A DNA stretch of 62,863 nt from Alphaproteobacteria bacterium (lineage in GTDB: Bacteria; Pseudomonadota; Alphaproteobacteria; Rickettsiales; JABCZZ01): the NCBI GenBank assembly GCA_013288985.1, contig JABDAT010000004.1:1-62863 (forward strand), read 5' to 3'. Below the pieces are notes generated by a model. The model had not been told where the DNA came from, ran no database searches, and saw only the letters and a list, made by a program, of their open reading frames with translations. The position numbers and the translations under genes are program-made. Within the stretch, counting starts at the first letter, position 1; each line of letters begins with the position of its first letter. Positions 22,151-51,629 of the stretch are shown here, piece after piece.

Positions 22151-22196
22151 ATTGGTAATGACGGGGTCGCATGTTCGATTCATGCTAGCGGCACCA
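22151..22196 (+). other. attR: displaced 3' half of tRNA-Thr
   Basis: 46/46 identical to 8625-8670; preceded by a tandem ATTGGTAA. Confidence 0.93.
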
Positions 22197-22267
22197 TAAC
22201 ACACACTATTATAGTAATGATTCCGGTATAAGCTCTGTGAGCGGCGGGATTAGTAGAAGTGAAGGAG

Positions 22268-24094
22268 TTATTTCACAAACACATAGGTTCCCGGCGCATC
22301 GGCCAGCGGGGCATAACCCTCTGATTTATTGCCCATAGCAGGTGGCTTGTGCTTGCCTTTTGAGTGACCCACCAGCCATTTCTGCCATGATTCCCACCAC
22401 GAGCCTTCCTGCATGGGCGTTTGGTGCTGCCATTGGCCGGGAGGAATATAGCGCGCTGTGTGCTTTGCGGTGGCAATCTGGTAATTGCGGCCTTTATGAC
22501 CTGGCTCACTGACAATACCAGCATTATGCCCGCCACTCGTTAGCACGAACGTCACTTCGCTATCAGTCAGCAGATGAATCTTATAGACCGATTTCCAGGG
22601 AGCCACATGGTCGCGCACAGTGCCCACGCTGAAGATAGGGATATCGATATCCTCTAACGCCACAGGCTCACCGTTTACTTCATAGCGCCCTTCAGCCAGA
22701 TCGTTTTTAAGAAATAAATGGCTCAGATATTCACTATGCATGCGGTAAGGCATGCGCGTGGCGTCAGCGTCCCATGCCATGAGATCGTTCATATCCCTGC
22801 GCTTACCTTGCATATAATCATTGATAAGATGTGACCAGACTAAATCATTGGAACTTAGCATCTGGAATGCACCCGCCATCTGGGTTTTATCGAGATATCC
22901 CTGCTGCGACATCACATCTTCAAGGAAAGCAAGCTGGCTATCATCAACAAAAAGCAGTAACTCGCCCGCTTCCTGAAAATCCGTCTGGGTGGCAAAAAGC
23001 GTCATGGTTTTGAAAGAAATATCGCCTTTGCGTGCAAGCACCGCGGCCATGATGGAAAGGAGCGTTCCTCCGATGCAATAACCGGCTGCATGAACGGGTT
23101 GGCCGGTGATGGCTTTAATCGCTTTTAATGCTTCTTCGACACCCATATGCACATAATCTTCCATGCCTACGTCGCGGTCGGCGGCATCTGGATTTTTCCA
23201 TGAAATCATAAATACGGTATGGCCTTTATCCACCAGGTATTTGACCATCGAATTGTGAGGAGAAAGATCGAGGATATAATATTTCATAATCCATGCCGGA
23301 ACGATGAGAAGGGGCTCTGCATAAACCTCGGATGTCGTAGGCTCATATTGAATCAGCTCAATAAGCCGGTTGCGGAAAACCACCTTACCCTTAGTTACAG
23401 CAATATTTTCTCCGACTTTAAATGCTTCGGTTCCTGCCAGTGGCTGGCCAGTGGCATTACGTCTCTGATCATCCGCCCAATTGAGGCAGCCCTGCCAAAG
23501 ATTGGCGCCCCCTTCGCTTAAAGTGGTGGCGAGTGCGTCCGGGTTAGTCAGCAGATAATTGGAAGGCGAAAACACGTCTAGTAATTGCCGCGCAGTAAAA
23601 GATACAACATCCAGATGATGAGGCGATACGCCACGGACATTACTGGTAGCTTCCTTCCACCAATCCTCATACAGCAGAAATCCCTGATAGAGAAAATTAT
23701 ACGGCCAGTGCTGCCATCCGTTACTTTGGAAGCGCCTATCACCAGGAGATGGTAATATTAGCGGTTCGATTACTTTGTCTGCTGTGGCTTGCATTCCATA
23801 CCGGCCAAGCTTTCCAATTTTCTCAACCAGGCTTTTATGCAAGGAGAGTATCTTGTCAGGTGAAAATACCAGATGCATCAGCCAATCATGCCTCGCCATA
23901 TCGAGCGATGCGGGCGAAAGATTGCCGGTTAGCTTGGCAAGCTCGGCATGCAATATATGATCCAGTGTATAATTTTTCGGGGAGGGGACTATAGGCTTAA
24001 TTTGACCATTCTGCGCTACTTCAGTTACGTTCCTATTGTTGGAAATAATGACAGGCTTCTTTTTGGATAGGGGATTGGCCTCCATGGTTTTCAT
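22268..24094 (-). CDS. phaC: Polyhydroxyalkanoate synthase (class I, PhaC2-like)
   Basis: PAWIMKYYILDL, GYCIGG lipase box, DHVAPW, GGHNAG. Confidence 0.93.
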   Translation of the reverse strand: MKTMEANPLSKKKPVIISNNRNVTEVAQNGQIKPIVPSPKNYTLDHILHAELAKLTGNLSPASLDMARHDWLMHLVFSPDKILSLHKSLVEKIGKLGRYGMQATADKVIEPLILPSPGDRRFQSNGWQHWPYNFLYQGFLLYEDWWKEATSNVRGVSPHHLDVVSFTARQLLDVFSPSNYLLTNPDALATTLSEGGANLWQGCLNWADDQRRNATGQPLAGTEAFKVGENIAVTKGKVVFRNRLIELIQYEPTTSEVYAEPLLIVPAWIMKYYILDLSPHNSMVKYLVDKGHTVFMISWKNPDAADRDVGMEDYVHMGVEEALKAIKAITGQPVHAAGYCIGGTLLSIMAAVLARKGDISFKTMTLFATQTDFQEAGELLLFVDDSQLAFLEDVMSQQGYLDKTQMAGAFQMLSSNDLVWSHLINDYMQGKRRDMNDLMAWDADATRMPYRMHSEYLSHLFLKNDLAEGRYEVNGEPVALEDIDIPIFSVGTVRDHVAPWKSVYKIHLLTDSEVTFVLTSGGHNAGIVSEPGHKGRNYQIATAKHTARYIPPGQWQHQTPMQEGSWWESWQKWLVGHSKGKHKPPAMGNKSEGYAPLADAPGTYVFVK

Positions 24095-24145
24095 CTCGTA
24101 CTATTTGAATAAGACCGCACTTTACCTTCTATTTATGCAAAACAT

Positions 24146-24159
24146 TTGACCTGCATCAA
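24146..24159. promoter_or_regulatory. FNR/FixK box upstream of phaC
   Basis: TTGAC-CTGC-ATCAA. Confidence 0.65.
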
Positions 24160-24177
24160 AATGAGAGAAAAACAGAT

Positions 24178-25083
24178 TTAGGATTTCTGCTTTATATGTT
24201 TTTCTTCCATCGATACTACATATCCGGCAATGACATCAAAAAGCTCTTCGTCAATGGAACTTTGACGTAAGGTGCGGGAGTTTTGTTTTAAATCCTCCAG
24301 CAATTTATCGATATTTTTCTCCGCGCGCTGCATAGCAGCAAGGCGGCTGGTGTTTTCACTGGCCAGAGATTCGGCGCAAGCCCTAAACAGCGAGATAAAA
24401 AGATACTCACGTAGTAGCGTATATAAAAGCGGTGCCGTGTTGTCCCCAATGATTTCAGGCAAATTCCCCGTTGGCCATGCTGCCTGCGCTAAGGAATGTT
24501 GCCATGTTGCGTCAAGCGGCAGCAGCTTCTGACATGCCGGTTCATAGACAGTGCCGGAATCAGGACGATTATGAAATATATACATGCGTGAATACTCATC
24601 CTGCGTGAAACTAGCCGTGCTCTCCATCAGTATCTGCCCCACAAGCGATGTGATGGAAGTAATAGCGCCCGGCACTTCAAATGTTTTCTTTACCTTAAAG
24701 CTTGCGTCGCTCAGGCGTCCGTAAATACGTTCTCCCACGGCCCAGAGTGTTTTTGTACCCGGCAATGTATCAAGTTGTGTATGCACATAATCTGCCAACT
24801 GGTCATTAAACTGACCCACAAGACCTTGATCCGAGCCAAAAACAATCACAGTGATTTCCTGCGTCTTCTGTCCTGACCACTCACTCGCAACTATGGGTGC
24901 GCTTTGGCGGAAGCAGGCTGTCAGTCCAAGCTCCACCGTATGATAATAGTCCCCGAGCGCTTTGGTTGCCATCTCATACTGTCCGATATTGGAGGCGGCC
25001 TGCACCTTCATCGTACGCACCACAGATTCAAGCTGCTCTGCTCCAGTTATTTTGCGACGCAGATTTTCCAGCGTATTACTCAT
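24178..25083 (-). CDS. atpG: N-ATPase gamma subunit
   Basis: [38 protein letters not shown]. Confidence 0.93.
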
Positions 25084-26627
25084 TGTGTTTTCTTTGTATC
25101 CGGCACCGGTTGGAATGGCGCCAAAACGTTGCCTGCGATTTGCACCATTACGCTACGGTCGGCATCGTTTAATGTCTCATTGGAAGAAAATCGCTGGAGT
25201 ATGGCTGCGGGAATCTCTGTCACTGTCGCGCAGAGGATATGCTGCGCGTCGTCCATTTTATCGTCCGGTATATTGTCAAACAATCCTTCGCCAAGTGCCA
25301 GCAGCATAGTAATCTGTTCAGTTACGCAGAGTGGTTCAGATTCCCCTTGCACCAGGCAACTGCGGATGCGCTTTCCATGAGCAATAATTTTGCTGGTGTG
25401 CGCGTCAAGCCTTGTGCCGAAACGGGCAAAGGTTTCAAGTTCCAGAAACTGGGCATAAGCAAGCTTGAGATCACCAGTGACAGCGCGGTAAGACGCGAGC
25501 TGCGCTTTGCTGCCGACGCGGGAGACAGATTTGCCTACATCTATCGCCGGTAAAATGCCAAGCTCAAACAATGTCGGCGAAAGATATATCTGGCCGTCCG
25601 TGATAGAAATAAGATTCGTCGGGATATAAGCCGAAATATCCTGCGCTTCAGTTTCGATGATGGGCAGTGCCGTCAGTGACCCGCCACCTTTCTCCTTACA
25701 TAAATGCGTTACACGCTCGAGCAGGCGTGAATGAATGTAAAAAATATCACCGGGGAAAGCTTCGCGTCCCGGTGGACGGCGCAGCAGAAGCGAAATCTCC
25801 CGGTAAGCGCGCGCATGATGCGTCAGATCATCATAGACGATGAGCACGTTATGGCCTTCTTCCATGAAATGCTCGGCAATGCTGGTAGCAGCATAAGGCG
25901 CGATATAGGTGAGGCCGGGTGGATCATTTCCTTCACTTACCACCACAATGGTATACTCCATTGCCCCATGCTCACGCAGGCGTGCAATAACCTTAGCGAC
26001 GGAAGAGGCGCGCTGGCCGATAGCGCAGTAAACGCATAACACATCCTTGCCCTTTTGATTCAGGATCGTATCAATAGCGATTGCGGTCTTTCCCGTCTGC
26101 CGGTCGCCCAGAATCAATTCACGCTGGCCGCGTCCGATAGGAATCAACGCATCAATAGCCATAATGCCGGTCTCAAGCGGCACGGTGACGGATGATCGGT
26201 CCATAATGGAAGGTGCCGGGCGTTCGATAGGAAGACGTTTACTGAAGACCACCGGGCCTTTATCATCAAGCGCGGCACCAAGCGGGTTAATGACGCGTCC
26301 GATTAAGCCGTCGCCCACCGGCACATCCATAACGCGCCCGGTACGCAAAACTTCAGACCCCGTCTGGAGCTGCCAGTAATTGCCGAGGAGAACGACGCCT
26401 ACCTCTTCTTCATCGACGTTAAACGCAATCCCGTAGATTTCGCCTGGAAACTTTACCAACTCCTCAAACCCGACATTCGGCAGGCCTGTAATCGTTGCAA
26501 TGCCGGTCGCTATATTCGCAAGTACACCTACTTCACGAAATTTCAGTTGCGGGGTTAATCTTTCCCGCGACTGCTTCATATCAGCGAAAGTTTTATCTAT
26601 AATGCTATGCAGGCTATCAGGCAGCAT
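25080..26627 (-). CDS. atpA: N-ATPase alpha subunit
   Basis: [20 protein letters not shown]; start placed at MLPDS (26627). Confidence 0.95.
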
Positions 26628-27384
26628 GGGCTGGCTCCTGGCCGGCTTTTTCTGCCATAGATTCAGCAACGGTTTTTTCAAGCGTTGCAAGGTAATCCGT
26701 TATGCTCCAGGCGAGCTTATGTCCATTCAAAGACAGTTCAATGCCACTTATCAGTTCCGGTACTATTTTAAACTGGAGCTTATCCGTGCCGGAAATTTCT
26801 TTGATTGCTGCTTTAATCGTATCCTGCACTAGTTGTGACAGGGCAAATGCGCTGGTAATGAGCATAACAGGCGAGGAAGAAAGCATATACTTCTCTTCAT
26901 CCGTCAGGCTTTGCAAATGCCTGATGAATACCGCACTCATCTCTTCTTCCAGACTGCTATCCGCCAAATCATGCAATACCTTTGCAGTAAGGGCAAAAAC
27001 TTCCTGTCTGGTTCGCTGTACGATTTCCTGGGTCAGGTTATCTTCTTCATTCCTTAAAGCCTCTTTCCTTTTCGTGCGTATTGCCTCTGCTTCGGTCTGC
27101 ACTTCCTTTAAAAGTTGCTGACGCGACTCTTCGGCCTCTTTCTTTGCATTATTTATGAGTTCCGACTTTTGCTTGTCGAACGCTTCATTTTTTTGCCGGA
27201 AATCATCCTGTTCCTTTTGCGCTTCAGCTTTTTTAGCACTTGCATCGGCAAGTTTATCGGCAATGTTCTTTTCGCGCGCAGCAATAGCATCTAAAATGGG
27301 CTTATAAAGGAATCGCTTCAGCAACCACATCAAAATGAGAAAGTTGACGGCTTGGGCAGCGACGGTGAACCAATCAATCAACAT
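26617..27384 (-). CDS. atpF: N-ATPase b subunit (extended, with a delta-like C-terminus)
   Basis: [23 protein letters not shown]; coiled coil; [15 protein letters not shown]. Confidence 0.92.
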
Positions 27385-27388
27385 AACA

Positions 27389-27670
27389 TTAATGCCCCGC
27401 TGCTTGGGTGATGGCGTGATTCCAGAACGGATTGGCAAAGATAAGAATCATCGACACTACAAAACAATAAATGGCGGTGGATTCAATCATGGCCAGTCCC
27501 ACGAACAAAGTCCGTGTAATAGTAGTAGAAGCATCAGGCTGTTGCGCAAGCGAGCGCAGCGCCGTCGCAACGGAATAGCCTTCACCGAGTGCTGGGCCCA
27601 GGCAGCCAAATCCGGTGGTAATCCCTGCGGTGACAATTGAAGCCACTGCAATTAAGGTCATGCTATCCAT
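27389..27670 (-). CDS. atpE: N-ATPase c subunit, Na+-type signature
   Basis: GPALGEG and MIESTAIY (E32, ESTxxY). Confidence 0.95.
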   Translation of the reverse strand: MDSMTLIAVASIVTAGITTGFGCLGPALGEGYSVATALRSLAQQPDASTTITRTLFVGLAMIESTAIYCFVVSMILIFANPFWNHAITQAAGH

Positions 27671-28373
27671 GGTGTGTCCTTTCGTTGTTGTTATCGATTG
27701 GTGAATCTTTGCGATGTCCTATGGCACCCGCAATGTAAACAGTGGCAAGGATGCTGAAGATATAAGCCTGCACCAGGCTGATGAGCAGACCAAGTGCTGT
27801 CATGACGGCAGGGAAAAGAAAAGGCGTGATGCTGAGCAAAATACCTACAATCATGCCGCCACTCATCATATTGCCGAACAAGCGTATCGCCATTGCCAGT
27901 GTGCGTGAAAACTCACTGATGATGTTAAAGGGTAGCATGATAAAAGTAGGTTGTGTGTAAGACACAAGGTAGCCACTTAAGCCTTGCGCCTGAATGCCAA
28001 AAAATGGCACGGCAATAAATACGCAAAGCGCAAGCGCTACAGTAGTTGAGAGCGACCCTGTTGGTGGTTCATATCCTGGAATGAGGGTGCAGATACCCGA
28101 TATAGCGATAAACAGAAATAACGTGCCAATAAAACCTATGTATTTTTCCGGATGTGCCAGACCGGCCTCTTCGATTTGGGTGTTGATACCGGTGACGATG
28201 ATTTCAAGAAAACTTTGCCAGTCTGAAACGGCACCATCTCGCACCAGTTTACGCGTAACAAGCATTGCACTTACGGTGAGTAGCAACATTAATGCCCAGC
28301 TTGTGAGAATAGTGCTGTTAAGCTTTAGGAAGCCATGTTGCCATACTATCAGCTGATCAGGGCTAATCCGCAT
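27663..28373 (-). CDS. atpB: N-ATPase a subunit
   Basis: PPTGSLSTT, SRTLAMAIRLFGN, VQAYIF. Confidence 0.93.
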   Translation of the reverse strand: MRISPDQLIVWQHGFLKLNSTILTSWALMLLLTVSAMLVTRKLVRDGAVSDWQSFLEIIVTGINTQIEEAGLAHPEKYIGFIGTLFLFIAISGICTLIPGYEPPTGSLSTTVALALCVFIAVPFFGIQAQGLSGYLVSYTQPTFIMLPFNIISEFSRTLAMAIRLFGNMMSGGMIVGILLSITPFLFPAVMTALGLLISLVQAYIFSILATVYIAGAIGHRKDSPIDNNNERTHHG

Positions 28374-28644
28374 ATTTAGGCTCCTGTGCCAGCCTTGTGA
28401 TAATAAACCGTGCAATGATAAAACCACCAAGGCATGCGAGCAGTCTTTTCCAGTCACTGTCTGCAACTGCATAAAACCCAGCCATAGTGATACTAATGCG
28501 TAACCAGAAACTGCCCATAAACCATAACGCCGGGTGCGCGCCGGCCATGGCTTTTTGAACCGTCCACCACAGGCCGCCGTAAAAAGCGGTTCCGAGCAGG
28601 CATCCACTACATAGCGCCAATACCAGACTTTCCATTTCATTCAT
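28363..28644 (-). CDS. atpR: N-ATPase accessory subunit AtpR
   Basis: FYGGLWWTV...SFWLR...GFIIAR; position in the operon. Confidence 0.85.
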   Translation of the reverse strand: MNEMESLVLALCSGCLLGTAFYGGLWWTVQKAMAGAHPALWFMGSFWLRISITMAGFYAVADSDWKRLLACLGGFIIARFIITRLAQEPKYAD

Positions 28645-28952
28645 CTTTTGCCTCTTCTTCCAGCATTTCCTTACTTTCTTTGGCGACCCAATGCGCTGCA
28701 TTCCAGCAACCGGTGAAGAGACCAATAATCAGCAGTGTCAGCGTCCATGAATGGGTTCCGGGATAGCGTCTATCCAGCCAGATGCCCAGCATCGCGCCTA
28801 ACAACGTCGGAACCGTTACTGACCAGCCGATAAGTCCGAACATGCCAAATCCAGACCAGATACTTCGTCCCGTTTTGCGCTGCGCTTTTAGCTTACGGTT
28901 TGCCTGCGCGCTTACTTGCTGACTGAGTATCTGGTTTTGCATTTCCTGATTC

Positions 28953-28960
<8 letters not shown>
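28637..28960 (-). CDS. atpQ: N-ATPase AtpQ (AtpZ/AtpI-like)
   Basis: GFGMFGLIGWSVTVPTLLG..LGIWLD...GCWNAAHWV. Confidence 0.85.
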
Positions 28961-31858
<2,898 letters not shown>

Positions 31859-42900: not shown

Positions 42901-42939
42901 TATTAAACGCAGCATGCCGGGAAGTGCATTATATCGCGG

Positions 42940-43821
42940 CTAGCTTACCGGAAGCCTTTCCAGTATAAGGCGGGTCATTGCTTCAATGCAGGACTTTCTG
43001 GTAGTGGTTTTGCGCCATACAAGGCCGATAGTACGGGAAATAGCAGGCTTTGCGAACGGAATATAGGCGATGCCATCTTTCTTTCTCATAGCCAATTTGG
43101 GAATCAAAGTAATGCCCACACCTGAAGCCACCATCTGGCGCAAGGTTTCAAGGCTGGTAGCTCGAAAATCTTGCTGTTCAAACCCTCCCATCAGGCTGCA
43201 TACCTCTAGCGCCTGATTGCGAAGACAATGGCCTTCCTCAAGAAGCAGCAATCGCTCTCCTTTGAGATCATTTTGATTGACGTGCTTGTGCTTTGCAAGG
43301 GGATGGCTGAGTGGTACCGCCAGAAGAAACGGATCGTCAAATAGAGCGGCGCTGCCAAATCCTTCTTCTTCAATGGGTAAAGCCACCAGGGCAGCATCGA
43401 GAGTCCCGGCCTTAAGTTTATCCAGCAACTGCTCGGTCTTTTCCTCAACCAATAATAATTTCAGCTTAGGAAGTTTCCTGGCAATTGCAGGGAGTACCTG
43501 CGGCAAAAAATAAGGGGCCAATGTAGGGAAAGCTCCTAAACGGAATTCTCCTGCATAGGGATCCTGTGCTGTTTTGGCGATATCCCGAATTTCCTGAGTA
43601 TCGCGCAAAACCTGTCGTGCGCGTTCAGCGATCTTCTCTCCGGTTGGCGTGATCATTACCCGTTTATTGGTGCGCTCGAATAGTTGTACTCCAAGATATT
43701 CCTCCATTTTCTTTAACTGCATGGAAAGTGTCGGCTGGCTTACATGGCATTGCTCTGCTGCTTTGCCAAAGTGCTGCTGGTCTGCCACTGCCACCAGATA
43801 CTGTAAATCCCTGAGATTCAT
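42940..43821 (-). CDS. oxyR: Peroxide-responsive LysR regulator OxyR
   Basis: MNLRDLQYL, LEEGHCLRNQALEVC, ATSLETLRQMV. Confidence 0.94.
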   Translation of the reverse strand: MNLRDLQYLVAVADQQHFGKAAEQCHVSQPTLSMQLKKMEEYLGVQLFERTNKRVMITPTGEKIAERARQVLRDTQEIRDIAKTAQDPYAGEFRLGAFPTLAPYFLPQVLPAIARKLPKLKLLLVEEKTEQLLDKLKAGTLDAALVALPIEEEGFGSAALFDDPFLLAVPLSHPLAKHKHVNQNDLKGERLLLLEEGHCLRNQALEVCSLMGGFEQQDFRATSLETLRQMVASGVGITLIPKLAMRKKDGIAYIPFAKPAISRTIGLVWRKTTTRKSCIEAMTRLILERLPVS

Positions 43822-43833
43822 GAACCCCTTATA

Positions 43834-43870
43834 ATAGTTTCTATCTATCGTTATAATATAATAATTAGAT
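43834..43870. promoter_or_regulatory. OxyR-binding site
   Basis: ATAG-N7-CTAT at 43834-48 with a degenerate second half, between divergent oxyR and ahpC. Confidence 0.55.
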
Positions 43871-43932
43871 TATACTTATCATAGAGGATTAGATAAGGTC
43901 AATATCACGAACACAAAAGTGATGGAGGTCAC

Positions 43933-44082
43933 ATGAGCAGCAATAACCCGGAATTCATCAAATGTGCCATGGAAGCCATAGAAGAAGGCATCAGGGCAGA
44001 AGAGATTAAAGAGGAATGCGCCTGCCGCATGGGGCTGCAATCACGTGAGTTCGACGAAGAAACCAACAACCAGCAATCATAA
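43933..44082 (+). CDS. 49-aa acidic Cys-containing peptide upstream of ahpC (not in the ORF track)
   Basis: GGAGG RBS; MSSNNPEFIKCAMEAIEEGIRAEEIKEECACRMGLQSREFDEETNNQQS; its stop overlaps the ahpC RBS. Confidence 0.6.
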   Translation: MSSNNPEFIKCAMEAIEEGIRAEEIKEECACRMGLQSREFDEETNNQQS

Positions 44083-44094
44083 GGAGAATCTATC

Positions 44095-44685
44095 ATGTTA
44101 GGCGTAGGCGATAAACTTCCGGTATTCAATGTCAAGGCGACGGCTTCACTGCCGCTTAAAGACATCACCATCGATAACGTCTTTATCGATGTGAACAACC
44201 AGAGTTACAAAGGCAAGTGGTTGGTGCTGTTCTTCTACCCGAAAGACTTCACATTCGTCTGCCCAACTGAGATAGCGGCGTTTGGCGAGCTGAATGAAGA
44301 ATTTAAGGATCGTGAAACCCAAGTGCTTGGTGGCAGTACGGACAGTGAATTTGTGCACTGGGCATGGCGTAAACACCAGGAGGAGTTGCGCGATCTCCCA
44401 TTTCCTCTCTTGGCAGACGTGAAGCGCGAACTGACTACGGCGCTTGGCATTCTCGATAAAAACGAGGGTGTGGCACAGCGCGCGACTTACATCGTGGACC
44501 CCGATGGCGTTATCCGCTTTGCCATGGTGACTGACCTCAATGTGGGGCGCAATCCGAAAGAGGTGCTTCGTGTACTGGACGCGCTACAGACCGATGAACT
44601 CTGCCCCTGCAACTGGAAAAAGGGCGACGAGACTATCGATCTGAAAGAGGTAACATCCGACAAACTGGGCAAGAAAGCAGCATAA
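44095..44685 (+). CDS. ahpC: Peroxiredoxin AhpC
   Basis: FYPKDFTFVCPTE, ELCPCNW. Confidence 0.96.
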   Translation: MLGVGDKLPVFNVKATASLPLKDITIDNVFIDVNNQSYKGKWLVLFFYPKDFTFVCPTEIAAFGELNEEFKDRETQVLGGSTDSEFVHWAWRKHQEELRDLPFPLLADVKRELTTALGILDKNEGVAQRATYIVDPDGVIRFAMVTDLNVGRNPKEVLRVLDALQTDELCPCNWKKGDETIDLKEVTSDKLGKKAA

Positions 44686-44742
44686 CTAATAGTGGGGAGG
44701 CAATGCCTCCCCGCTTCCCAAATAGAACTTATGGAGAATAAG

Positions 44743-45306
44743 ATGAATATGCAGCAACTAAAATCACAACTTGGGGAATACGCTAAAGATACTAAATTAA
44801 ATCTGGGCAGCGTCCTGACAGAAGAAGGCGCACCGGACCTGCGACAGAACCAGATTTACGGCATTGCGCTGGCATCGGCATATGCCACGAAGAATGCTGC
44901 CGTGGTGCAGGCGGTACTGAGCGATGCAGCGTCCGCGCTGTCGGAAGCAGAAGTCAATGCAGCCAAGAGTGCTGCCACTATTATGGCGATGAATAATATC
45001 TATTACCGTTTTGTACATCTGGTGAGCGATAAGGAATTCGGAAAAATGCCTGCCAAATTGCGCATGAATGTGATTGGCAGCCCTGGCATTGAAAAAGTCG
45101 ATTTTGAGCTTTATTCCCTTGCCGTATCTGCCATCAATGGTTGTGGCATGTGCATGGATGCCCATGTGCATGAAGTCACCAAGGCAGGCACCAGCAAAAC
45201 CGGCGTGCAATCCTGCATTCGTATTGCTTCGGTTATCAATGCCGCATCCCAGGCAACAGTCATTGGCAGTATGGAGAGTACTGAGAGACAACAAATAGTA
45301 GCTTAA
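44743..45306 (+). CDS. ahpD: Alkyl hydroperoxide reductase AhpD
   Basis: MAMNNIYYRF, SAINGCGMCMDAH. Confidence 0.94.
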   Translation: MNMQQLKSQLGEYAKDTKLNLGSVLTEEGAPDLRQNQIYGIALASAYATKNAAVVQAVLSDAASALSEAEVNAAKSAATIMAMNNIYYRFVHLVSDKEFGKMPAKLRMNVIGSPGIEKVDFELYSLAVSAINGCGMCMDAHVHEVTKAGTSKTGVQSCIRIASVINAASQATVIGSMESTERQQIVA

Positions 45307-45406
45307 GCAATAATATCAGCCGGTACTTGCTGCAGAGTCGCGGTATTATTGACATTCGTTTCCAAAAACTTATGGGGAGTAGTTTTACTAATCTCTCTGC
45401 TCTCTG

Positions 45407-45623
45407 ATAATCCCTTGCTTTGCGATTTAGAATCCTTGATATGCTAAAAATATTCCCTGTTACTTGGAGCAGGGAATTCTTATGTAACTCACTGGGATCG
45501 GCCATCATATCGATGACATAATTATCTATTCTTGCACCAGAAATGTAATATTCCCTGTATTTTCCCTGATAAGCAGGGATTTGACATGAGAGACTGGTTC
45601 ACAGCAGACTCTATGCTGCACTA
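45407..45623 (+). repeat. Conserved module right end, copy 2
   Basis: Co-linear with 36146-36359; ends GAGACTGGTTCACAGCAGACTCTATGCTGCACTA. Confidence 0.88.
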
Positions 45624-45852
45624 TATCTTTGTATTTTAATTTTATGGACGCGCTGTGAGCGTCGCAAGCGGATGTGCAAAATATTGTTCATCAAGAATTT
45701 TTATTATCCCTGGATAGCTAAGTCCCTTAGAATAATTGCGCACTTGTTTTCCATCTTTCCAGTTAATCGAGTATCTTACTATAAATAATACCACCTGTCC
45801 CGGCAATCATAGATCGCCGGGTCAAGCAGACATTCGTGTTTAGAGTGTAGGC

Positions 45853-46107
45853 TTAGCTGGCTTTGGCTGTGGGAGCAGCGGCTTTATCTTTAGTGCAGGT
45901 TGCAGCGCATTCAGCATCCAGTTTCTTCACTGTTTTTGCAATTTCATCCTTGTCGATGCTGTATTTCGCTTTTACAGCTTCGTTGAACTTATCCGGATTG
46001 GTTGTCTGGAAGGCAAGTTCAGCTGGTGTCAGCTTATTCCAGGTTTCTGCAATCTTAGCGCTTAATTTCTGAGCGTGGGTACTGCTGTTTGCGGGTTGAT
46101 TATCCAT
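45853..46107 (-). CDS. CsbD-like small stress protein, copy 2
   Basis: Paralog of 35087-35338, sharing the C-terminus CTKDKAAAPTAKAS. Confidence 0.72.
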   Translation of the reverse strand: MDNQPANSSTHAQKLSAKIAETWNKLTPAELAFQTTNPDKFNEAVKAKYSIDKDEIAKTVKKLDAECAATCTKDKAAAPTAKAS

Positions 46108-46243
46108 AACGTATCTCCTTTAAGGAAGTTCTGCATAATCTAGGACGAAAGGCAAAAGCCTGTCGCTGCCATGCGAGAGAAAATATGAGCTTCTGCTCAT
46201 CTTTTCTCTATGTGGTTTATGATAAGAAAAGTGGCTAATTTAT

Positions 46244-46257
46244 TTGATGTAGGTCAA
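46244..46257. promoter_or_regulatory. FNR/FixK box
   Basis: TTGAT-GTAG-GTCAA, at the position equivalent to 35477. Confidence 0.7.
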
Positions 46258-46314
46258 AGTATAGCTTCCCACTAGTGCTATGGATAGAAATGGGTTTTTC
46301 AGGGATAAGTAAAT

Positions 46315-46701
46315 ATGAAATCGGCAAAAGAAATTAAAGATGCACAGGAGTATGAAAAAATATTTCAGCAATATTTAGAAATATGCAACCGGGCTATTGA
46401 GCAGAACAAAAAGAAATTCCCTTATACCGAAATCTGGGGTGCCAGATTTAACGCCTTGAAAGAAGAAGCAACACTTCAGGCTATTGTTTATGATGACCGA
46501 CCTAAGGTAGCATTTACGCTCAGGCTCACCAAAGACATGAAAATTGAAATTGTGGAAAAGAAGCCACTTCCGGCTGAAGACGAATGGCCTTTTACCTATC
46601 AATATTTGAAGCGCGTAGTGGATAATCCCAAAGAATACATCGAAAATCCAGCAAAGCTTGAATGGGGATGGCTGAAAGAAGTGTTTGGCTCAAAAGTTTA
46701 A
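46315..46701 (+). CDS. Hypothetical protein
   Basis: 128 aa with RBS; C-terminal YLKRVVDNPKEYIENPAKLEWGWL. Confidence 0.7.
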   Translation: MKSAKEIKDAQEYEKIFQQYLEICNRAIEQNKKKFPYTEIWGARFNALKEEATLQAIVYDDRPKVAFTLRLTKDMKIEIVEKKPLPAEDEWPFTYQYLKRVVDNPKEYIENPAKLEWGWLKEVFGSKV

Positions 46702-46740
46702 ATCCTATGCCGATGAAAAATAGCAGCTTCGGAAAGGAAG

Positions 46741-47988
46741 ATGTTTATGGTAAAAAGCCCGAAGGTTCAACTCGCAAAACCGGTTTTGGTATCGCACCAA
46801 CCCAAAAAAGAGCGTTCCGAAACTTCATCCGAAGATGATAAAATAAGGCTGGCTGATTTTATTCATGAAAATACGAACCATATAGTTCAAGAATGGGAAG
46901 CGTTTGCAAGGACACTGAAAGCTACCAATAATCATATGACACCACTTGCATTAAGGGATCATATCTATGAGTTGCTCGCTTTCATAGTCAGTGACATACA
47001 ATCACCGCAAACCCGCCAGGAACAGATTCAAAAATCGCAGGGGGAAAAAGCAAGAACCTCCACACCCACAGCAGCTGAAACCCACGCGGCTTTGCGGTTA
47101 GCGGGTGGTTTTGATATTGACCAGATGGTTTCGGAATACCGCGCACTGCGTGCCAGCGTTATCAAATTGTGGAGTAAGGCCAATCCTATTATGAATAGTA
47201 CCGATATATTAGACCTTACCAGATTCAATGAGTCTGTTGATCAGGAACTGGCAGAATCGGTCAGCCATTACACAGAAAAAGTCAATTATTCCAAAGACCT
47301 TTTTATGGGTATATTAAGCCATGATCTTGCCACACCGCTTAATGTGATAGCGATGTCTGCTCAGCTTATGCTGAATATCGGAGCATTGAATAAGCAACAG
47401 ATGCTTGATAACCGACAGACGATGCTCGTTACACAGATTCGTGAAAGCACATCCCGTATTACCAAAATTATTACCGATCTCCTTGATGTAACCCGTGCGC
47501 GATTCGGAGCCGGACTCCCCGTTGTTCTTGCCCCCATGGATATGGGGTTAGTGGCTCAGCAATTGGTGGACGAAATGCGTGTTGCTCATCCCACACGTAC
47601 AATCCTGCTTGAAGTTCTGGGAGATACAAAAGGAGATTGGGATAAAGCTCGTATCGGACAGGTCTTCTCAAATCTGATCGGCAATGCTGTCCAATATAGT
47701 TTTAAGGATTCACCTATTGATGTTGCCGTAAAAGACAACGCAGAAGAAGTAGTATTATCCGTACATAATCAAGGTATTCCTGTTCCTGCAGAAAAACTCA
47801 AAACTATATTCGATGCCTTATCCCGTGCCAGTATAGATCAAGGGGATCATCCAGTAGCAGTTAATCTAGGGTTAGGTCTTTATATTACCAATGATATTGT
47901 AGTTTCCCATGGCGGCACTATTGATGTAACATCATCTGAGAAAGATGGCACCACCTTTACTGCAAAATTTCCGCGAGTAGTATCATGA
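46741..47988 (+). CDS. Soluble histidine kinase with an RsbRD-N-like input domain
   Basis: RLADFI..EWEAFAR..EYRALRASV; LSHDLATPL H-box; NLIGNAVQY; LGLGL. Confidence 0.9.
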   Translation: MFMVKSPKVQLAKPVLVSHQPKKERSETSSEDDKIRLADFIHENTNHIVQEWEAFARTLKATNNHMTPLALRDHIYELLAFIVSDIQSPQTRQEQIQKSQGEKARTSTPTAAETHAALRLAGGFDIDQMVSEYRALRASVIKLWSKANPIMNSTDILDLTRFNESVDQELAESVSHYTEKVNYSKDLFMGILSHDLATPLNVIAMSAQLMLNIGALNKQQMLDNRQTMLVTQIRESTSRITKIITDLLDVTRARFGAGLPVVLAPMDMGLVAQQLVDEMRVAHPTRTILLEVLGDTKGDWDKARIGQVFSNLIGNAVQYSFKDSPIDVAVKDNAEEVVLSVHNQGIPVPAEKLKTIFDALSRASIDQGDHPVAVNLGLGLYITNDIVVSHGGTIDVTSSEKDGTTFTAKFPRVVS

Positions 47989-48416
47989 GTGTAACTCAGC
48001 TTGCCACAGCACCCGATGAAGAATTAGCAGTAGAAAACTTGCCTAGCTATCGTGTGCTTGTGGTAGACGATAATGAAGCTTCTGCCAGAACTATATTGTG
48101 GACAATGGAAATGCTGGGGCATACGGCACAAATGGCTCATGACGGTGAAACTGCTATTGCGCTCGCCAAGTCATTTCATCCTGATGTTGTCTTCCTGGAT
48201 ATTGGAATACCATTAATGAATGGCTATGAAATATGCGAGGCTATGCGCCTTGAGCCCACTCTTCAGAATACAGTTTTTATAGCCCAGACCGGATGGGGGC
48301 AAAAGGAACATCGGGAACGCTCAAAGGAAGCGGGGTTTGACCATCATTTAGTGAAGCCATTAAATATTGAAGTGCTTCAAAACATTCTTTCTCTATTGGA
48401 TAAAGAAAGGCTTTAA
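47985..48416 (+). CDS. Single-domain response regulator
   Basis: LVVDDN, FLDIGIP, QTGWG, FDHHLVKP. Confidence 0.92.
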   Translation: MSVTQLATAPDEELAVENLPSYRVLVVDDNEASARTILWTMEMLGHTAQMAHDGETAIALAKSFHPDVVFLDIGIPLMNGYEICEAMRLEPTLQNTVFIAQTGWGQKEHRERSKEAGFDHHLVKPLNIEVLQNILSLLDKERL

Positions 48417-48468
48417 ATTAATTCTATAATAATAACTCATAGGAGTTATTATTATAGAATTAATTTAA
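48413..48468. terminator. Perfect 26-bp inverted repeat between convergent genes
   Basis: TTAAATTAATTCTATAATAATAACTC-ATAG-GAGTTATTATTATAGAATTAATTTAA. Confidence 0.8.
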
Positions 48469-49214
48469 CAAATCTTTGGCAAATGAGAATGTGAATAACA
48501 TCCATTCACAAATTTGAGCAATCGTTCCATGGAATCGATCGTAACACGTGTCCCGATAATCTGGATGCCGGTCTCTTCTCTTAATATATTAAGAGCGCGG
48601 GAAAAGGTTGCTCCTTTCATGCCGAGCGTAGATGCAATAAGCGTCTTATCGTAAGGAAGGTTAAGTATAGCACCGTCTTTTTGATCCAGCACCGGGCAGA
48701 GCCCGAGCAGGAAACATCCGATACGCTGAGGGGCACTATAGAGAAGATATTGTTCCAATTGCAATTCATGGCGGCGTTGATACTGCACCATGGAAGTCAG
48801 CATGTTGAAGGCAAGCTGATTATTCACACGCAGTTGCTCTTTAAGTAAGGAAAGAGGCACATTGAGTATCTGTGAATCTTCCACCACTTGCGCACTGCTC
48901 GTAAAGCGCCCCTCTTCAAAAATTGCATTTTCGCCTGTAACGCTATCTCTTGTAAGCATAGCCAGACTTACTTCTTCACCTTCTTCTGTGGTATGGAACA
49001 ACTTCAGCCACCCATTGCAGATGATATAAAAGGAATTCGCCTTCTCGCCTTCGAGATAAAGAAGCTTACCTTTTTTGTAACTTTTAATTTGGGCCGCATC
49101 GGTGAAACGCGCAATATCCTCATCCGGCATATGGCTAAACAGCGTAAGGCTCTTAAAGAATGCAAGCGATTTACATTGTTTTGAACCTGCCTCTTGTTCT
49201 TTGCTTGCCTTCAT
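48465..49214 (-). CDS. Crp/Fnr family regulator (Dnr/NnrR/FixK-like)
   Basis: cNMP beta-roll (GWLKLF, VTGE), SAPQRIGCFLL, LPYDKTLIASTLGMKGATFSRAL HTH. Confidence 0.9.
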   Translation of the reverse strand: MKASKEQEAGSKQCKSLAFFKSLTLFSHMPDEDIARFTDAAQIKSYKKGKLLYLEGEKANSFYIICNGWLKLFHTTEEGEEVSLAMLTRDSVTGENAIFEEGRFTSSAQVVEDSQILNVPLSLLKEQLRVNNQLAFNMLTSMVQYQRRHELQLEQYLLYSAPQRIGCFLLGLCPVLDQKDGAILNLPYDKTLIASTLGMKGATFSRALNILREETGIQIIGTRVTIDSMERLLKFVNGCYSHSHLPKIC

Positions 49215-49273
49215 AAGCAGGTACGCCTTTGGTAAAATTACCCGACACTGTACAACATCTTTACACCAATTCT

Positions 49274-49325
49274 TTGATATAAGTCAAAAATGCAAATTTC
49301 CTTATGCTCCCTTGATGTTGGTCAA
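49274..49325. promoter_or_regulatory. Two FNR/FixK boxes in a divergent promoter
   Basis: TTGAT-ATAA-GTCAA (49274-87) and TTGAT-GTTG-GTCAA (49312-25). Confidence 0.72.
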
Positions 49326-49415
49326 ATACACATTATTGAAAATTATTATTACTTACTGCCCAGTCATTCTTCCACAGAGAAGAAACCTCATAATCAAACC
49401 AAACAGGAGATTATT

Positions 49416-50198
49416 ATGCATTCCATCAATCAGATCAAAGATGTTCCGGGTTTTCTTCCTGCGACATCTCGCTCCAAATTTGAAGATGCGGACTATCTTG
49501 CTATATTATGCCATGAAATCCGCACACCCCTTGGTGCCATTGTTGGCCTTGCCGATATTCTTGCCAGCACAAAATGCAGCCCCAAGCAGCAAACCGAATG
49601 TGCGGACATGCTGCATGACAGCTCTAAAATGCTGATGGGATTGCTCAATGATTTACTGGATTCCTTTAAGTTGGATAATGGCAAAGTAGAATTGGAACAT
49701 ACCACTTTTGATCTGGCTCAGGTGCTGGAAGAGGCTAAAAATATTGCGATGGTCAAGGCAAGAGAAAAAGGCTTAAGCATATATACGCGCATCGGAAAAC
49801 CAGCTTCTGCCTTGTTTATGGGCGATCCACTTCGTATTCGCCAGATTATTCTAAACCTGCTTGGAAATGCCGTAAAATTTACCGCTAAGGGAATTATTTC
49901 TCTTTATATGACTGAAGAAGTGAATTCACATGGACAGTCTGAAGTATGTATCACGGTTGCAGATTCGGGTATCGGTATTGAAAAAGAGAAGCTTGGAAAG
50001 ATTTTTGACAAATATACCCAAGGCGATGCCAGCACTACCAGACAATATGGTGGGACAGGCCTGGGGCTGTTTATCAGCCAGGAACTTGCACATTTAATGA
50101 AGGGTACCATTACCGTAAAAAGCTGGCCACAAATGGGCTCGCATTTCATCGTAACTTTGCCGCTGCAAAAAGCTCCAGCGCTGCTGGCTATCGTGTAA
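49416..50198 (+). CDS. Sensor-less histidine kinase (HisKA + HATPase only)
   Basis: AGGAGA RBS before ATG 49416; CHEIRTPL, NLLGNAVKFT, DSGIGI, GGTGLGL. Confidence 0.87.
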   Translation: MHSINQIKDVPGFLPATSRSKFEDADYLAILCHEIRTPLGAIVGLADILASTKCSPKQQTECADMLHDSSKMLMGLLNDLLDSFKLDNGKVELEHTTFDLAQVLEEAKNIAMVKAREKGLSIYTRIGKPASALFMGDPLRIRQIILNLLGNAVKFTAKGIISLYMTEEVNSHGQSEVCITVADSGIGIEKEKLGKIFDKYTQGDASTTRQYGGTGLGLFISQELAHLMKGTITVKSWPQMGSHFIVTLPLQKAPALLAIV

Positions 50199-50271
50199 TA
50201 ATCCCTATGGCCTGCTTATAAGCATTCCTGCATACTTATTATGAACCGCCTACCATAAGGAGATTAATATT

Positions 50272-50460
50272 ATGGCCAGTAAAAAAGAAATTCATCCGCA
50301 TAGAGGCGGAGAACAAATGAGTTCTGAAATGGCTGATTTTTTATCCGAAAAACAAGCTGCTTATCAGAAATCCGAGCAACAACATTTTCCTGTCGAAGAT
50401 AAAAGGGGAACTGCGCGCAAAGTGCACACAAATGGCTCAACCCCTCGTAAAGATATTTAA
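50272..50460 (+). CDS. Small hydrophilic hypothetical protein
   Basis: AGGAGA RBS; 62 aa. Confidence 0.55.
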   Translation: MASKKEIHPHRGGEQMSSEMADFLSEKQAAYQKSEQQHFPVEDKRGTARKVHTNGSTPRKDI

Positions 50461-50472
50461 ATGGGGATTTCT

Positions 50473-50631
50473 ATGTCTGAGCATAAAGAGAAACATAAGT
50501 ATAAACATCACAGTGATGTTGCCAAAATTAAAGAGCTAAATGCAATAGAAGCAGAAATTGCCGCAACACAAAGTCACAGCCAGGATGCTGATAGGCATCG
50601 CAAGACGGAGCATCAGAAATCAGATAAGTAA
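50473..50631 (+). CDS. Small His/Lys-rich hypothetical protein (not in the ORF track)
   Basis: MSEHKEKHKYKHHSDVAK...; GGGGA RBS. Confidence 0.45.
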   Translation: MSEHKEKHKYKHHSDVAKIKELNAIEAEIAATQSHSQDADRHRKTEHQKSDK

Positions 50632-50659
50632 TATCATGGCGATAAAGGATCAAGCGCAC

Positions 50660-50734
50660 TATTCCCTGTATCTGCGCTGATAAACAGTGAATTAATGATA
50701 GAGACTTGGTTCGCTACAGACTCCACCCGCACCG
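50660..50734 (+). repeat. Conserved module right end, copy 3 (partial, degenerate)
   Basis: TATTCCCTGTATCTGCGCTGATAAACAGTGAATT..GAGACTTGGTTCGCTACAGACTCCACCCGCACCG. Confidence 0.8.
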
Positions 50735-50846
50735 TTTCTCATTTATATATAAATTATATTCCGCCAATAGATCCCTCATTGATTCATGATGTTGCCTCTA
50801 CCAGTATCGTGGATACCTAATTTGGGCCACAACAGGAGAAATACTA

Positions 50847-51278
50847 ATGAAAAAACTCATTCTAATTACGGCAATGCTGGGTGTATTGCATTTGCCAACG
50901 CTCGCATTTGCCAATGATGGCGATGGCCTGCCTCCCACACTCATGGAAAAAGCCATATCCAAATTGCCCAGTGACAAGGCTGAACAATTCCGCGATGCAC
51001 TGCAGTCCGCGCATGAAGAAAACGCGCCACTGTATGACCAGGCCAAGCAGCTGCACACGCAAATACATGACATCCTTGCCGCCGATAATTTTGACAGAGA
51101 CGCGTTTAATGCCAAAAACCAGGAACTGCGACAAGTGCATGATAAAATACGCACGAATCTAGACGATGCATTTGGCGCCGCGGTTTCGGATCTTTCCACT
51201 AGCGAACGCCAGACGCTACTGACTGCTCTGGAGCACCAGGAGCATAAAGTTCACAAGGCAGTAAAGAACGCAGGATAA
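50847..51278 (+). CDS. Periplasmic Spy/CpxP/ZraP-like helical protein
   Basis: Signal peptide; ILAADNFDRDAF; LSTSERQTL. Confidence 0.7.
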   Translation: MKKLILITAMLGVLHLPTLAFANDGDGLPPTLMEKAISKLPSDKAEQFRDALQSAHEENAPLYDQAKQLHTQIHDILAADNFDRDAFNAKNQELRQVHDKIRTNLDDAFGAAVSDLSTSERQTLLTALEHQEHKVHKAVKNAG

Positions 51279-51282
51279 TCAT

Positions 51283-51534
51283 ATGTTCATCACACAGAAG
51301 CATAAGATAATTGCACTTGCTCTTGGCACCTGTTGCATGCTTGCGAGTACGCCTGCCAATGCACGTCTCGACGTAGGCATCAACATCGGCGTTCCCGGTC
51401 CCGTGTATGCGGAGCCGAGCTACGTGGCACCAGTGTATGCTGAGCCCACCTATGCTGCGCCCGTTGTCTATCCTGCCTATTACCATAACCGGCATTATTT
51501 TCATGGCAGACGGGATTTCCATCATCGGCACTAG
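51283..51534 (+). CDS. Small secreted Pro/Tyr/His-rich protein
   Basis: Signal peptide, VGINIGVPGPVY, PVY repeats, His/Arg tail. Confidence 0.65.
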   Translation: MFITQKHKIIALALGTCCMLASTPANARLDVGINIGVPGPVYAEPSYVAPVYAEPTYAAPVVYPAYYHNRHYFHGRRDFHHRH

Positions 51535-51609
51535 TTGTTTTATGTGCAGCGGTGAGATTATTTGCTAAGGCCAGGACTCATGCGTTACCGCACCGAGGCC
51601 AAATCGCCT

Positions 51610-51629
51610 CAGACTCCGTGCTGCACCAT
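51610..51629 (+). repeat. Conserved module right end, copy 4 (terminal 20 bp only)
   Basis: CAGACTCCGTGCTGCACCAT identical to 36341-36360. Confidence 0.8.

Follow-up and report, generated by a model that had tools for sequence, protein, structure and literature searches.

How does a row of multi-gene units, each closed by a copy or remnant of one non-coding sequence and none with a recombinase of its own, come to stand behind the 3′ end of a tRNA? The question is raised by contig JABDAT010000004.1 of an alphaproteobacterial genome assembly (GCA_013288985.1; Rickettsiales, JABCZZ01), whose 62,863 nt we call the window. An earlier note, made from the sequence alone, had described 22191-51629 as a tandem array of recombinase-less cargo cassettes stacked on a tRNA CCA end. 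We propose that 22197-51629 is probably a composite island, produced by repeated site-specific insertion of members of one family of large serine recombinase (LSR) islands at the 3′ end of tRNA-Thr(GGT). The family is defined in this analysis by a sequence model, R1, and by a block of genes that includes the LSR. G000 is the window's own genome assembly (1.31 Mb, 61% complete; the window contig, C4, and 61 other contigs), the remaining G-numbers denote genomes (G002:C6 is contig C6 of G002), and L-numbers denote loci with the hairpin pattern of the terminus described below.

Repeats and module boundaries

ARAGORN finds two tRNA genes in the whole window, tRNA-Thr(GGT) and tRNA-Leu(CAG); the latter is not the anchor, because its 5′ end faces the array. 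The sequence directly before the array, where the earlier note saw a tRNA 3′ half ending at 22196, does supply a CCA end but is not a tRNA gene (ARAGORN calls none at 22140-22196): it repeats the last 46 nt of tRNA-Thr(GGT) exactly, finishing GCGGCACCA (Table 1).

Every repeat listed in that note was recovered by blastn at its coordinates, and with the repeats the sizes of modules 1-4 (14,163, 9,264, 5,111 and 895 bp). Module 1 is bracketed by a direct repeat of 64 nt (22188-22251 and 36351-36414, 88% identical), within which the 55 nt that follow the CCA, here called the left end, agree at 48 of 55 positions (22197-22251 and 36360-36414; 87%, E 1.6e-13 against the 1.31-Mb genome). The terminus in front of the second CCA, T1, recurs three times: as T2 (36145-36361 versus 45407-45625, 81% over 222 columns, E 5.8e-53), as the shorter T3 (36286-36348 versus 50660-50724, 85% over 65 columns, E 3e-12) and as the fragment T4 (36335-36360 versus 51604-51629, 24 of 26 positions, E 4.2e-4), whose final 20 nt (51610-51629) are exact. 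Modules 1 (22197-22251 to T1) and 2 (36360-36414 to T2) have both attachment-type ends and no integration genes. The absence of a recombinase from the array holds as far as tested: Pfam (E≤1e-4) recognizes no recombinase or transposase domain in the 35 non-overlapping open reading frames (ORFs) of at least 70 aa from 22268 to 51531.

All four termini point away from tRNA-Thr, as do the termini of the relatives' islands, and they erode with distance from the tRNA, as had been proposed. Model R1 scores 58.9 bits at T1, 57.9 at T2 and 41.5, over part of its length, at T3, and it does not find T4; three upstream TCCCTG repeats are kept in T1 and one in T2. The training alignment of R1 includes T1 and T2 (two of 58 rows), and T3 lies outside it. 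This gradient agrees with the suggestion that the newest unit lies nearest the tRNA, and it is the one observation that orders the insertions.

The repeats were also sought elsewhere in the genome. On the remaining 61 contigs of G000 no match rose above chance (best E 0.14), and clusters of TTCCCTG/CAGGGAA occur in G000 only at the two full termini, T1 and T2. Scattered repeats of the REP or MITE kind, which the note had named as the finding that would speak against it, are thus not seen, with no copies in G000 outside 36-52 kb of contig C4. Genomes of relatives hold one to five terminus copies each by model R1.

A widespread DNA end module

In the terminus, a non-coding module of ∼215 bp, four TTCCCTG repeats at 21-bp intervals are followed by a hairpin and by a core resembling the T-arm and acceptor end of a tRNA. 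The last ∼65 nt of T1 have blastn matches in seven further genomes among 60 relatives. Scanning species-representative genomes with the exact hairpin pattern matched at least 120 stretches, which with six viral contigs make 126 loci; all counts over L-numbered loci given here (of 125 or 126, 50, 55 and 18) are among the matches listed. Most are Alphaproteobacteria by record title; the other titles name Myxococcota/deltaproteobacteria, Binatia, Acidobacteriota, Planctomycetota, Gemmatimonadaceae and Chloroflexia, labels that can be wrong because the records are metagenome bins.

Beyond the hairpin, the canonical continuation GAGACnGGTTCGC(n4)AGACTGCGnCCACC(G/A)CCA was found, as a pattern, in 53 of the 126 loci. 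The consensus places TCCCTG at about −161, −140, −119 and −98, that is, in steps of 21 bp, with an inverted copy at −82; then come TTCCCTGTnnnnnCCCTG-n5-CAGGGAA at +1 to +30 and the core. Of 50 loci, 39 have TCCCTG at −96 to −99 and 34 have it at −117 to −120. T1 fits this architecture exactly, with TCCCTG at −138, −117 and −96, the inverted copy at −80, the hairpin and a core that ends GCTGCACCA; T2 fits it except for its degraded outer repeats, having only TCCCTG at −97 and the inverted copy at −81. The fixed 21-bp phasing points to an accessory DNA-binding factor. No neighbouring gene is conserved within 3 kb of the terminus in the 18 loci examined. Model R1, which covers the hairpin and core (∼80 nt) and was built from 58 sequences, finds the terminus in 22 of the 151 genomes of the order, G000 included, and scores 55-72 bits in the relatives.

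Other identities of the terminus were tried and rejected. At gathering scores Rfam recognizes just the two tRNAs in the window, and at E≤10 it gives three chance matches on 36000-36500, so a described RNA family was rejected; reading the core as an RNA structure was dropped as well, its 5′ flank having no consistent pairing by eye. As for a transposon end (Tn7- or Mu-like, TG...CA), neither the window nor G000 nor the relatives' islands yielded an inverted partner copy. One element (L135:1150-1480) had no blastn match in phage and plasmid collections, and metagenome scans with two junction patterns gave no matches.

Two further observations concern the loci of the hairpin scan. At L071, a Sulfitobacter sediminis record, the terminus fills a 414-bp contig with a title coverage of about 736, and many other terminus loci are located at contig ends; in some genomes the terminus is probably multi-copy and breaks assemblies. 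In ten loci (L014, L031, L074, L077, L089, L103, L115, L118, L120 and L124; mostly Elusimicrobia records and one Muribaculaceae) the hairpin is the same but the conserved stretch that comes after it is another (…CAGCATATTGCTG…ACTACACACTCCG…), which looks like a second family that shares the hairpin.

Complete islands in relatives

The autonomous, recombinase-bearing versions that the earlier note predicted do exist in relatives, and they carry the same end module. A search by tblastn with viral-contig proteins placed an LSR (at least 40% identity), preceded by a DUF2924 gene, in 17 of the 125 other loci, and a ParB_N-N6/N4 methylase in 16 of the 125, often with DUF5681 and a terminase large subunit (TerL). 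Two relatives, annotated with Pfam and PHROGs, show the full layout. The first is G002:C6, where tRNA-Ser(GCT) and a 162-bp spacer are followed by LSR, DUF2924, an ORF of unknown type, TerL, DUF5681 and methylase genes, all of which except the unknown ORF point back to the tRNA. Next come ∼20 kb of cargo (a type I restriction subunit, a sulfotransferase-TPR protein and an autotransporter) and a first terminus, then 11 kb of further cargo, a second terminus in direct orientation and ordinary genes. This contig is an array comparable to that of the window, with one LSR block and two direct termini 11 kb apart. G054:C6 has the same LSR block, 27 kb of defence-type cargo (MmeI, Abi, GmrSD, NERD and a second serine recombinase) and a terminus. 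Defence systems and metabolic operons are carried by the relatives' islands alike. The right end is thus a defined one, as had been claimed: the same module closes recombinase-bearing islands that start at a tRNA 3′ end.

Pfam recognizes no capsid or portal domain in the islands of G002:C6 and G054:C6; because terminase is present without these domains we prefer 'island' to 'prophage scar', and the latter reading was set aside. The annotated terminus-bearing islands G002:C6, G002:C2 and G054:C6 have no Phage_integrase domain by Pfam and have serine recombinases instead.

Across the order, the LSR is present in 32 of 151 genomes; it occurs in 12 of 21 terminus-positive genomes (G000 excluded) versus 20 of 129 terminus-negative ones, a difference in which kinship inflates any test. 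Nine LSR/terminus pairs share a contig, and in six of them (G002:C6, G054:C6, G054:C1, G041:C12, G015:C103 and G020:C12), 9.5 to 43 kb apart, the geometry is as expected: the left-hand LSR points away and the terminus, on the right, points outward.

The tRNA end and the putative crossover core

A tRNA (Ser, Ala or Ile) converges on the LSR, 160-450 bp from its stop, in nine of the 15 loci with a near-full-length LSR, and tRNAs are present in 13 of 30 LSR loci overall. The anchors in G002, G041, G015 and G054 are tRNA-Ser, tRNA-Met and tRNA-Ile, that of G015:C103 being tRNA-Met. The likeness between core and tRNA can be followed through the T-arm and acceptor end, for example in tRNA-Ser of G002 (GAGTTCGAATCTCATCTCCTCCGCCA) and its terminus (GGTTCGCAGCAGACTCTGTCCACCGCCA). 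In four of four islands the last 6 nt of the core are the last 6 nt of the anchoring tRNA: GCACCA in the window, where tRNA-Thr ...GCGGCACCA matches T1 ...GCTGCACCA, CCGCCA in G002 and G041 and CCACCA in G015. GCACCA at the CCA end of tRNA-Thr is therefore a credible crossover region.

In 11 LSR-bearing loci the 3′ end of an LSR gene comes no more than about 1 kb after the core; a core in this position is either an unsplit site or a head-to-tail tandem. Fourteen of 55 canonical loci have AGTC(T/C) within 12 nt after the CCA, an inverted repeat of AGACT in the core, and some loci show matching changes on both sides (GGACTG...CAGTCC in L056, GGACT...AGTCC in L131). The attachment site thus looks like an imperfect palindrome, of which integrated islands would keep the left half at their distal end. 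We infer that the LSR is the enzyme acting at the termini, from where it lies and because the annotated islands have no Phage_integrase domain.

Between tRNA-Ile and the LSR of G054:C6 (L148, about 10030-10094) there is also a core-like sequence ending GACCACCA, without hairpin or repeats and followed by CAGTCTC. It may be what is left of an earlier insertion, or it may be the actual half-site of the target.

How the array may have formed

Put together, a complete member of the family would consist, from the tRNA side, of the tRNA 3′ end, a short arm, LSR and DUF2924 genes pointing back at the tRNA, TerL, DUF5681 and ParB-methylase genes, variable cargo and the ∼215-bp non-coding end stopping at ...NCCA, after which host DNA resumes. 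The window units would have kept the right end (T1 to T4, progressively eroded) and, in two cases, also the 55-bp left end. They would have entered the tRNA-Thr end one after another, and either lost the LSR/terminase block later or been recombinase-less derivatives from the start. Having no DUF2924/LSR/TerL/DUF5681/ParB-methylase block, the units are derivatives and not autonomous members, and we regard them as putative decayed islands or cis-mobilizable derivatives. The two left ends cease to be alike at one and the same nucleotide of the repeat (22251 in module 1, 36414 in module 2), which favours a shared short, possibly functional end over two independent deletions of the LSR block. That the units can still be moved by an incoming autonomous island is conceivable, although we lean against it.

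Contrary evidence and rival explanations

Several observations weigh against a composite LSR island. A tblastn search with 12 island proteins (LSR, DUF2924, methylase, TerL and others) found no homologue in the window (1e-6) or in G000 (1e-4), an assembly that is 61% complete. No relative shares the flanks of the window and there is no empty site for comparison: in the relatives the orthologue of the response regulator CtrA, from the left flank, is on one contig and that of the glycosyltransferase, from the right flank, on another, with no tRNA-Thr neighbourhood in common. The left end, defined in the window, bears only a weak likeness to the LSR-side arms of G002 and G054 and is not general in the family, which speaks against this half of the earlier claim of defined left and right ends. 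Over these arms, 72, 340, 19 and 23 of 3000 shuffles reached the observed score (the first two against G002, with 72 for copy a against G002:C6), and the best of them, 19, is marginal given the 12 comparisons made. A profile of 13 LSR-side arms misses the window left end, and what follows the first terminus of G002:C6 does not resemble the LSR-side arm of that genome, the left end not being repeated there.

The association of LSR and terminus is also imperfect. Three of the nine same-contig pairs (G002:C2, G039:C49 and G089:C1) misfit the expected geometry, 20 of the 32 LSR-positive genomes are without a detectable terminus and nine of the 21 terminus-positive genomes are without an LSR at E≤1e-60. 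The exact hairpin pattern was absent from all five LSR-positive genomes tried, after which R1 found weaker terminus copies in G015, G016, G039 and G041. Loci L101, L025, L092 and L044 have a variant layout with the TTCCCTG repeats and hairpin inverted between LSR stop and tRNA. LSRs are not known to need phased accessory repeats. The tRNAs at the four variant loci are Ser-CGA, Ser-TGA and Gln, and a different sequence replaces the canonical core.

The last contrary point comes from sequencing depth, taken from the contigs of the one public run that contains this DNA (X1), from which the assembly was probably made. Depth was 51.8 in the left flank, 75.4 at the end of the integrase island, 65.6 in module 1, 26.3 from 35142 to about 45.9 kb and 18.2 on the contig with module 3 and the right flank. 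The step from 65.6 to 26.3, at 35141-35171, falls inside module 1, at a 31-mer common to both copies of a small gene, geneX; the other break is at the 30-nt tRNA end. The step suggests strain heterogeneity or a chimeric join. The note had expected strain indels at GCACCA, and the sole hint of one, this same step, lies off any CCA junction. Apart from cross-mapping of paralogues, the X1 contigs contain no skip, excision or circle joint, rare forms being invisible in contigs.

A working accretion system, in which non-autonomous cassettes are captured, stacked and moved again in trans by the LSR of an autonomous island and are perhaps packaged by its terminase, is in our view unlikely. Its appeal is that the hairpins and cores of T1 and T2 are almost intact, with R1 scores inside the range of the relatives, that both 55-bp left ends stop at the same nucleotide, as fits a functional end, and that head-to-tail junctions are common in the family (the 11 loci above); tandem LSR-less islands of Dehalococcoides are read likewise in the accessible part of the paper describing them (PMC3146451). 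This must be set against the lack of a helper LSR in G000 and of excision or circle joints in the X1 contigs, rare forms aside, against a left end that is not general, and against decay: T2 ends CTA instead of CCA and has lost two of three outer repeats, and T3 and T4 are fragments. The broader proposal, that the TTCCCTG terminus and the short left end are cis signals of cross-phylum, tRNA-targeting LSR islands that have a terminase and lack capsid genes, satellite-like with borrowed capsids of phages or gene transfer agents, by which operon cargo is captured, stacked, excised and packaged in trans, is doubtful to the same degree. An improbable case is that the termini belong to a stress/hypoxia locus as native regulatory or structural DNA and were duplicated in place with geneX and the CBS gene, the modules never having been mobile. 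The duplication of geneX and of the region upstream of the CBS gene alongside the termini agrees with it, as does a coherent cargo of polyhydroxybutyrate (PHB) metabolism, N-ATPase, acetate kinase/phosphate acyltransferase and redox and stress regulators. Yet the end module occurs in many unrelated gene contexts (the 18 loci without a conserved neighbour within 3 kb), spans several phyla by record titles, is located at the ends of LSR islands and has no Rfam match, and in the window the termini lie between convergent genes and are therefore no promoters for their neighbours.

Very improbably, the array is in part an artefact, a metagenome-assembled contig that joins strains at repeats. The unequal X1 depths and the position of the breaks, at the 30-nt tRNA end and the 31-mer shared by the geneX copies, are what such a contig would give; however, T1 with left end copy b, and likewise T2, each lie within a single Logan contig, the repeats and their order are independent of the join at 35170, and geneX copies that are just 81% identical should be resolved by reads or long k-mers. 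Hardly credible is that the tyrosine integrase of the neighbouring island (8671-22196) made or moves the array. It is the sole recombinase in the window and targets the same tRNA, but its own repeat is the 46-nt 3′ part of the tRNA and not a 6-9-nt GCACCA junction with a 215-bp terminus, and the relatives' terminus islands (those three annotated above) are without a Phage_integrase domain. A composite LSR island at tRNA-Thr therefore remains the reading that we prefer, and on the nature of the ends and the location of the units the earlier note is largely right; on trans mobilization, and on the 'integron-like' comparison taken up below, it overreaches.

Module contents and the surrounding locus

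Coordinates of the features are collected in Table 1.

Table 1. Positions in the window of the tRNA genes, the integrase island and the parts of the array
Feature	Coordinates	Strand	Evidence
tRNA-Thr(GGT), complete, anchor gene	8596..8670	+	ARAGORN; Rfam tRNA 67.6 bits
Integrase/primase island, satellite-like, inserted in tRNA-Thr, 13.5 kb	8671..22150	.	Pfam, NCBIfam, flanking 46-nt repeat
D5-type primase	12820-15204	-	within integrase island
P4-type tyrosine integrase, 421 aa	16795-18063	-	Pfam/NCBIfam, within integrase island
ResIII/DEAD helicase, 813 aa	19444-21885	-	within integrase island
Right border of integrase island and array attachment end, finishing GCGGCACCA	22151..22196	+	46/46 identical to 8625-8670
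Left-end repeat copy a, 55 bp, directly after CCA	22197..22251	+	87% to 36360-36414
Module 1 cargo	22252..36144	.	Pfam; NCBIfam alt_F1F0 epsilon, PRK08190
geneX, 114 aa, module 1	35087-35434	-	
Terminus T1, complete; core ...GAGACTGGTTCACCGCAGACTCCGTGCTGCACCA	36145..36359	+	model R1 58.9 bits, E 3.4e-16
Left-end repeat copy b, 55 bp, directly after T1 CCA	36360..36414	+	blastn
Module 2 cargo	36415..45406	.	Pfam
Terminus T2, full length, core end GCACTA	45407..45623	+	81% to T1; R1 57.9 bits, E 7.1e-16
Module 3	45624..50659	.	repeat families, Pfam
geneX paralogue, 83 aa, module 3	45853-46107	-	
Terminus T3, degraded hairpin and core only	50660..50734	+	R1 41.5 bits, E 9.5e-11, model positions 6-75
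Module 4: Spy/CpxP-like 'Metal_resist' gene and 83-aa ORF	50735..51603	.	Pfam
Terminus T4, 26-nt core fragment ending GCACCAT	51604..51629	+	24/26 to T1
tRNA-Leu(CAG), right-hand neighbour	51776..51862	+	ARAGORN

Eight of the 35 ORFs of the array have no Pfam match whatsoever. Module 1 encodes PhaC, a complete N-type ATPase operon, acetate kinase, a MaoC-phosphate acyltransferase, a phasin, an enoyl reductase-like short-chain dehydrogenase/reductase (SDR), geneX and a CBS protein. Within it, 24178-34746 holds the complete alternative (N-type) F1F0 ATPase operon beside PhaC, phasin, acetate kinase, the bifunctional enoyl-CoA hydratase/phosphate acyltransferase and the SDR, a combination that presumably resembles the low-oxygen survival loci of Burkholderia. 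Module 2 has genes for a flavodoxin-like reductase, HxlR, a cupredoxin, a metallophosphoesterase, CopC, a type III polyketide synthase, an extracytoplasmic function (ECF) sigma factor with its anti-sigma factor, LysR, an AhpC-like protein and a CMD protein. Module 3 starts with a degenerate left-end motif, the 12-nt echo GCGCTGTGAGCG at about 45650-45664, and carries the geneX paralogue, a 128-aa ORF, a histidine kinase, a receiver, a Crp/Fnr regulator, a second histidine kinase and a 30-nt remnant (50602-50631) of the region upstream of the CBS gene; module 4 has no left-end motif. A perfect 26-nt inverted repeat with a 4-nt loop (48413-48468), between the receiver gene and the convergent Crp/Fnr gene, is probably a two-way terminator.

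Two sequences of module 1 recur in module 3: geneX, whose copies are 81% identical and have a conserved upstream region, and the DNA upstream of the CBS gene. The geneX product has no Pfam, NCBIfam or PHROG match; by eye it is like CsbD-type stress proteins. Homologues of the cargo near termini elsewhere amount to generic two-component and Crp matches without synteny.

To the left, the 46-nt tRNA repeat on both sides of the 13.5-kb integrase island, together with the integrase, is the ordinary signature of a tRNA-inserted island. This island looks like a satellite-type element with defence cargo; it encodes two proteins of the metallo-beta-lactamase (MBL) fold with weak matches to anti-phage MBL families, and several of its ORFs belong to no family. 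The note had held that this satellite later split the tRNA and displaced the array. The island does lie between the 46-nt tRNA copies; the later timing does not follow, the order of the two events not being derivable. Further to the left, beside a Che-type cluster upstream, the response regulator at 6912-7634 matches as a CtrA equivalog with 408.8 bits and has 92-96% identity in five relatives, which places the organism in the Alphaproteobacteria.

Comparison with known systems

The array is a case of serine-recombinase island accretion at an RNA gene with recombinase-less units, a kind already published. In SCCmec, large serine recombinases insert cargo at the 3′ end of a conserved gene, and ccr-less pseudo-SCC units occur in tandem, bounded by repeats; such units can depend on a recombinase from another unit. 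By this description SCC elements differ from the islands studied here in their protein-coding target (rlmH/orfX), in belonging to another phylum and in having neither terminase genes nor a phased-repeat end module. Cis-mobilizable elements that accompany integrative and conjugative elements are attachment-site-bounded units without recombination or transfer genes, stacked beside the autonomous element at its attachment site. Those cases use tyrosine integrases and conjugation, whereas here an LSR and phage-type packaging genes are associated.

The closest published system is that of the ssrA-specific islands of Dehalococcoides, here compared as far as the accessible part of the paper describes them (McMurdie et al. 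2011, PMC3146451). These have a CcrB-like serine recombinase of ∼540 aa on the reverse strand beside attL, an integration module with ParB-domain and methylase genes, and insertion at the 3′ end of a small RNA gene. Tandem islands each end in a repeat of the RNA 3′ end with a conserved motif just upstream, and 15 islands without the integration module are, for the authors, possible cis-mobilizable elements spread by accretion; the same SCC parallel is drawn there (PMC3146451). Shared with our family are thus the serine recombinase, the ParB/methylase genes, insertion at an RNA 3′ end and tandem recombinase-less units. On that description, the LSR islands differ in targeting tRNA genes (Thr, Ser, Met, Ala and Ile) and not ssrA, in pairing the recombinase with DUF2924 instead of a small serine recombinase, in a block that holds TerL and DUF5681, in a shared junction of about 6-9 nt versus 20 bp and in a distal ∼215-bp module with 21-bp-phased repeats that is conserved over many lineages. 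DUF2924 beside a recombinase is mentioned for Wolbachia prophage regions in the part of PMC10299305 available to us.

The tycheposons of Prochlorococcus, according to the main text of their description, are tRNA-anchored cargo islands in which new arrivals push older ones inward, with scattered partial tRNA repeats and degenerate remnants, and some are satellite-like with terS (bioRxiv 10.1101/2020.12.28.424599). In that text 910 of 937 use tyrosine recombinases, the repeats are partial tRNAs of ∼40 nt and no TTCCCTG-type end module is described (bioRxiv 10.1101/2020.12.28.424599). Compared by description, tRNA anchoring and stacking are alike, and the junction repeat in the window is 6-9 nt of tRNA. 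Integrons likewise stack recombinase-less cassettes at one site, the newest being expected beside the attachment point; they differ in having IntI, attI with its Pc promoter and attC sites, whereas the window units are multi-gene modules of 1-14 kb with regulators of their own. 'Integron-like' is therefore an analogy only: no intI, attI or attC-type features were found, and the sole Phage_integrase match is the P4-like integrase of the other island.

The literature covered, which was partial and without supplements, offers these analogues but no description of the TTCCCTG end module or of a DUF2924-LSR-TerL-DUF5681-methylase block as a tRNA-targeting island family, so a large family of tRNA-anchored serine-recombinase islands apparently went unrecorded. 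The ∼215-bp end module and the five-gene block provide a sequence handle for recognizing such islands. The family would help to explain how operon-sized accessory modules, here for PHB metabolism, an N-type ATPase and redox and stress regulators, are stacked at one tRNA in small-genome Alphaproteobacteria. If the recombinase-less units were still movable, they would be the serine-recombinase counterpart of cis-mobilizable elements; if the ends were indeed cis signals for capture and packaging, the whole would amount to an integron-like system for entire operons. Compared with the known systems, the interest of the family lies more in the breadth and regularity of its end module and phased repeats than in the stacking itself.

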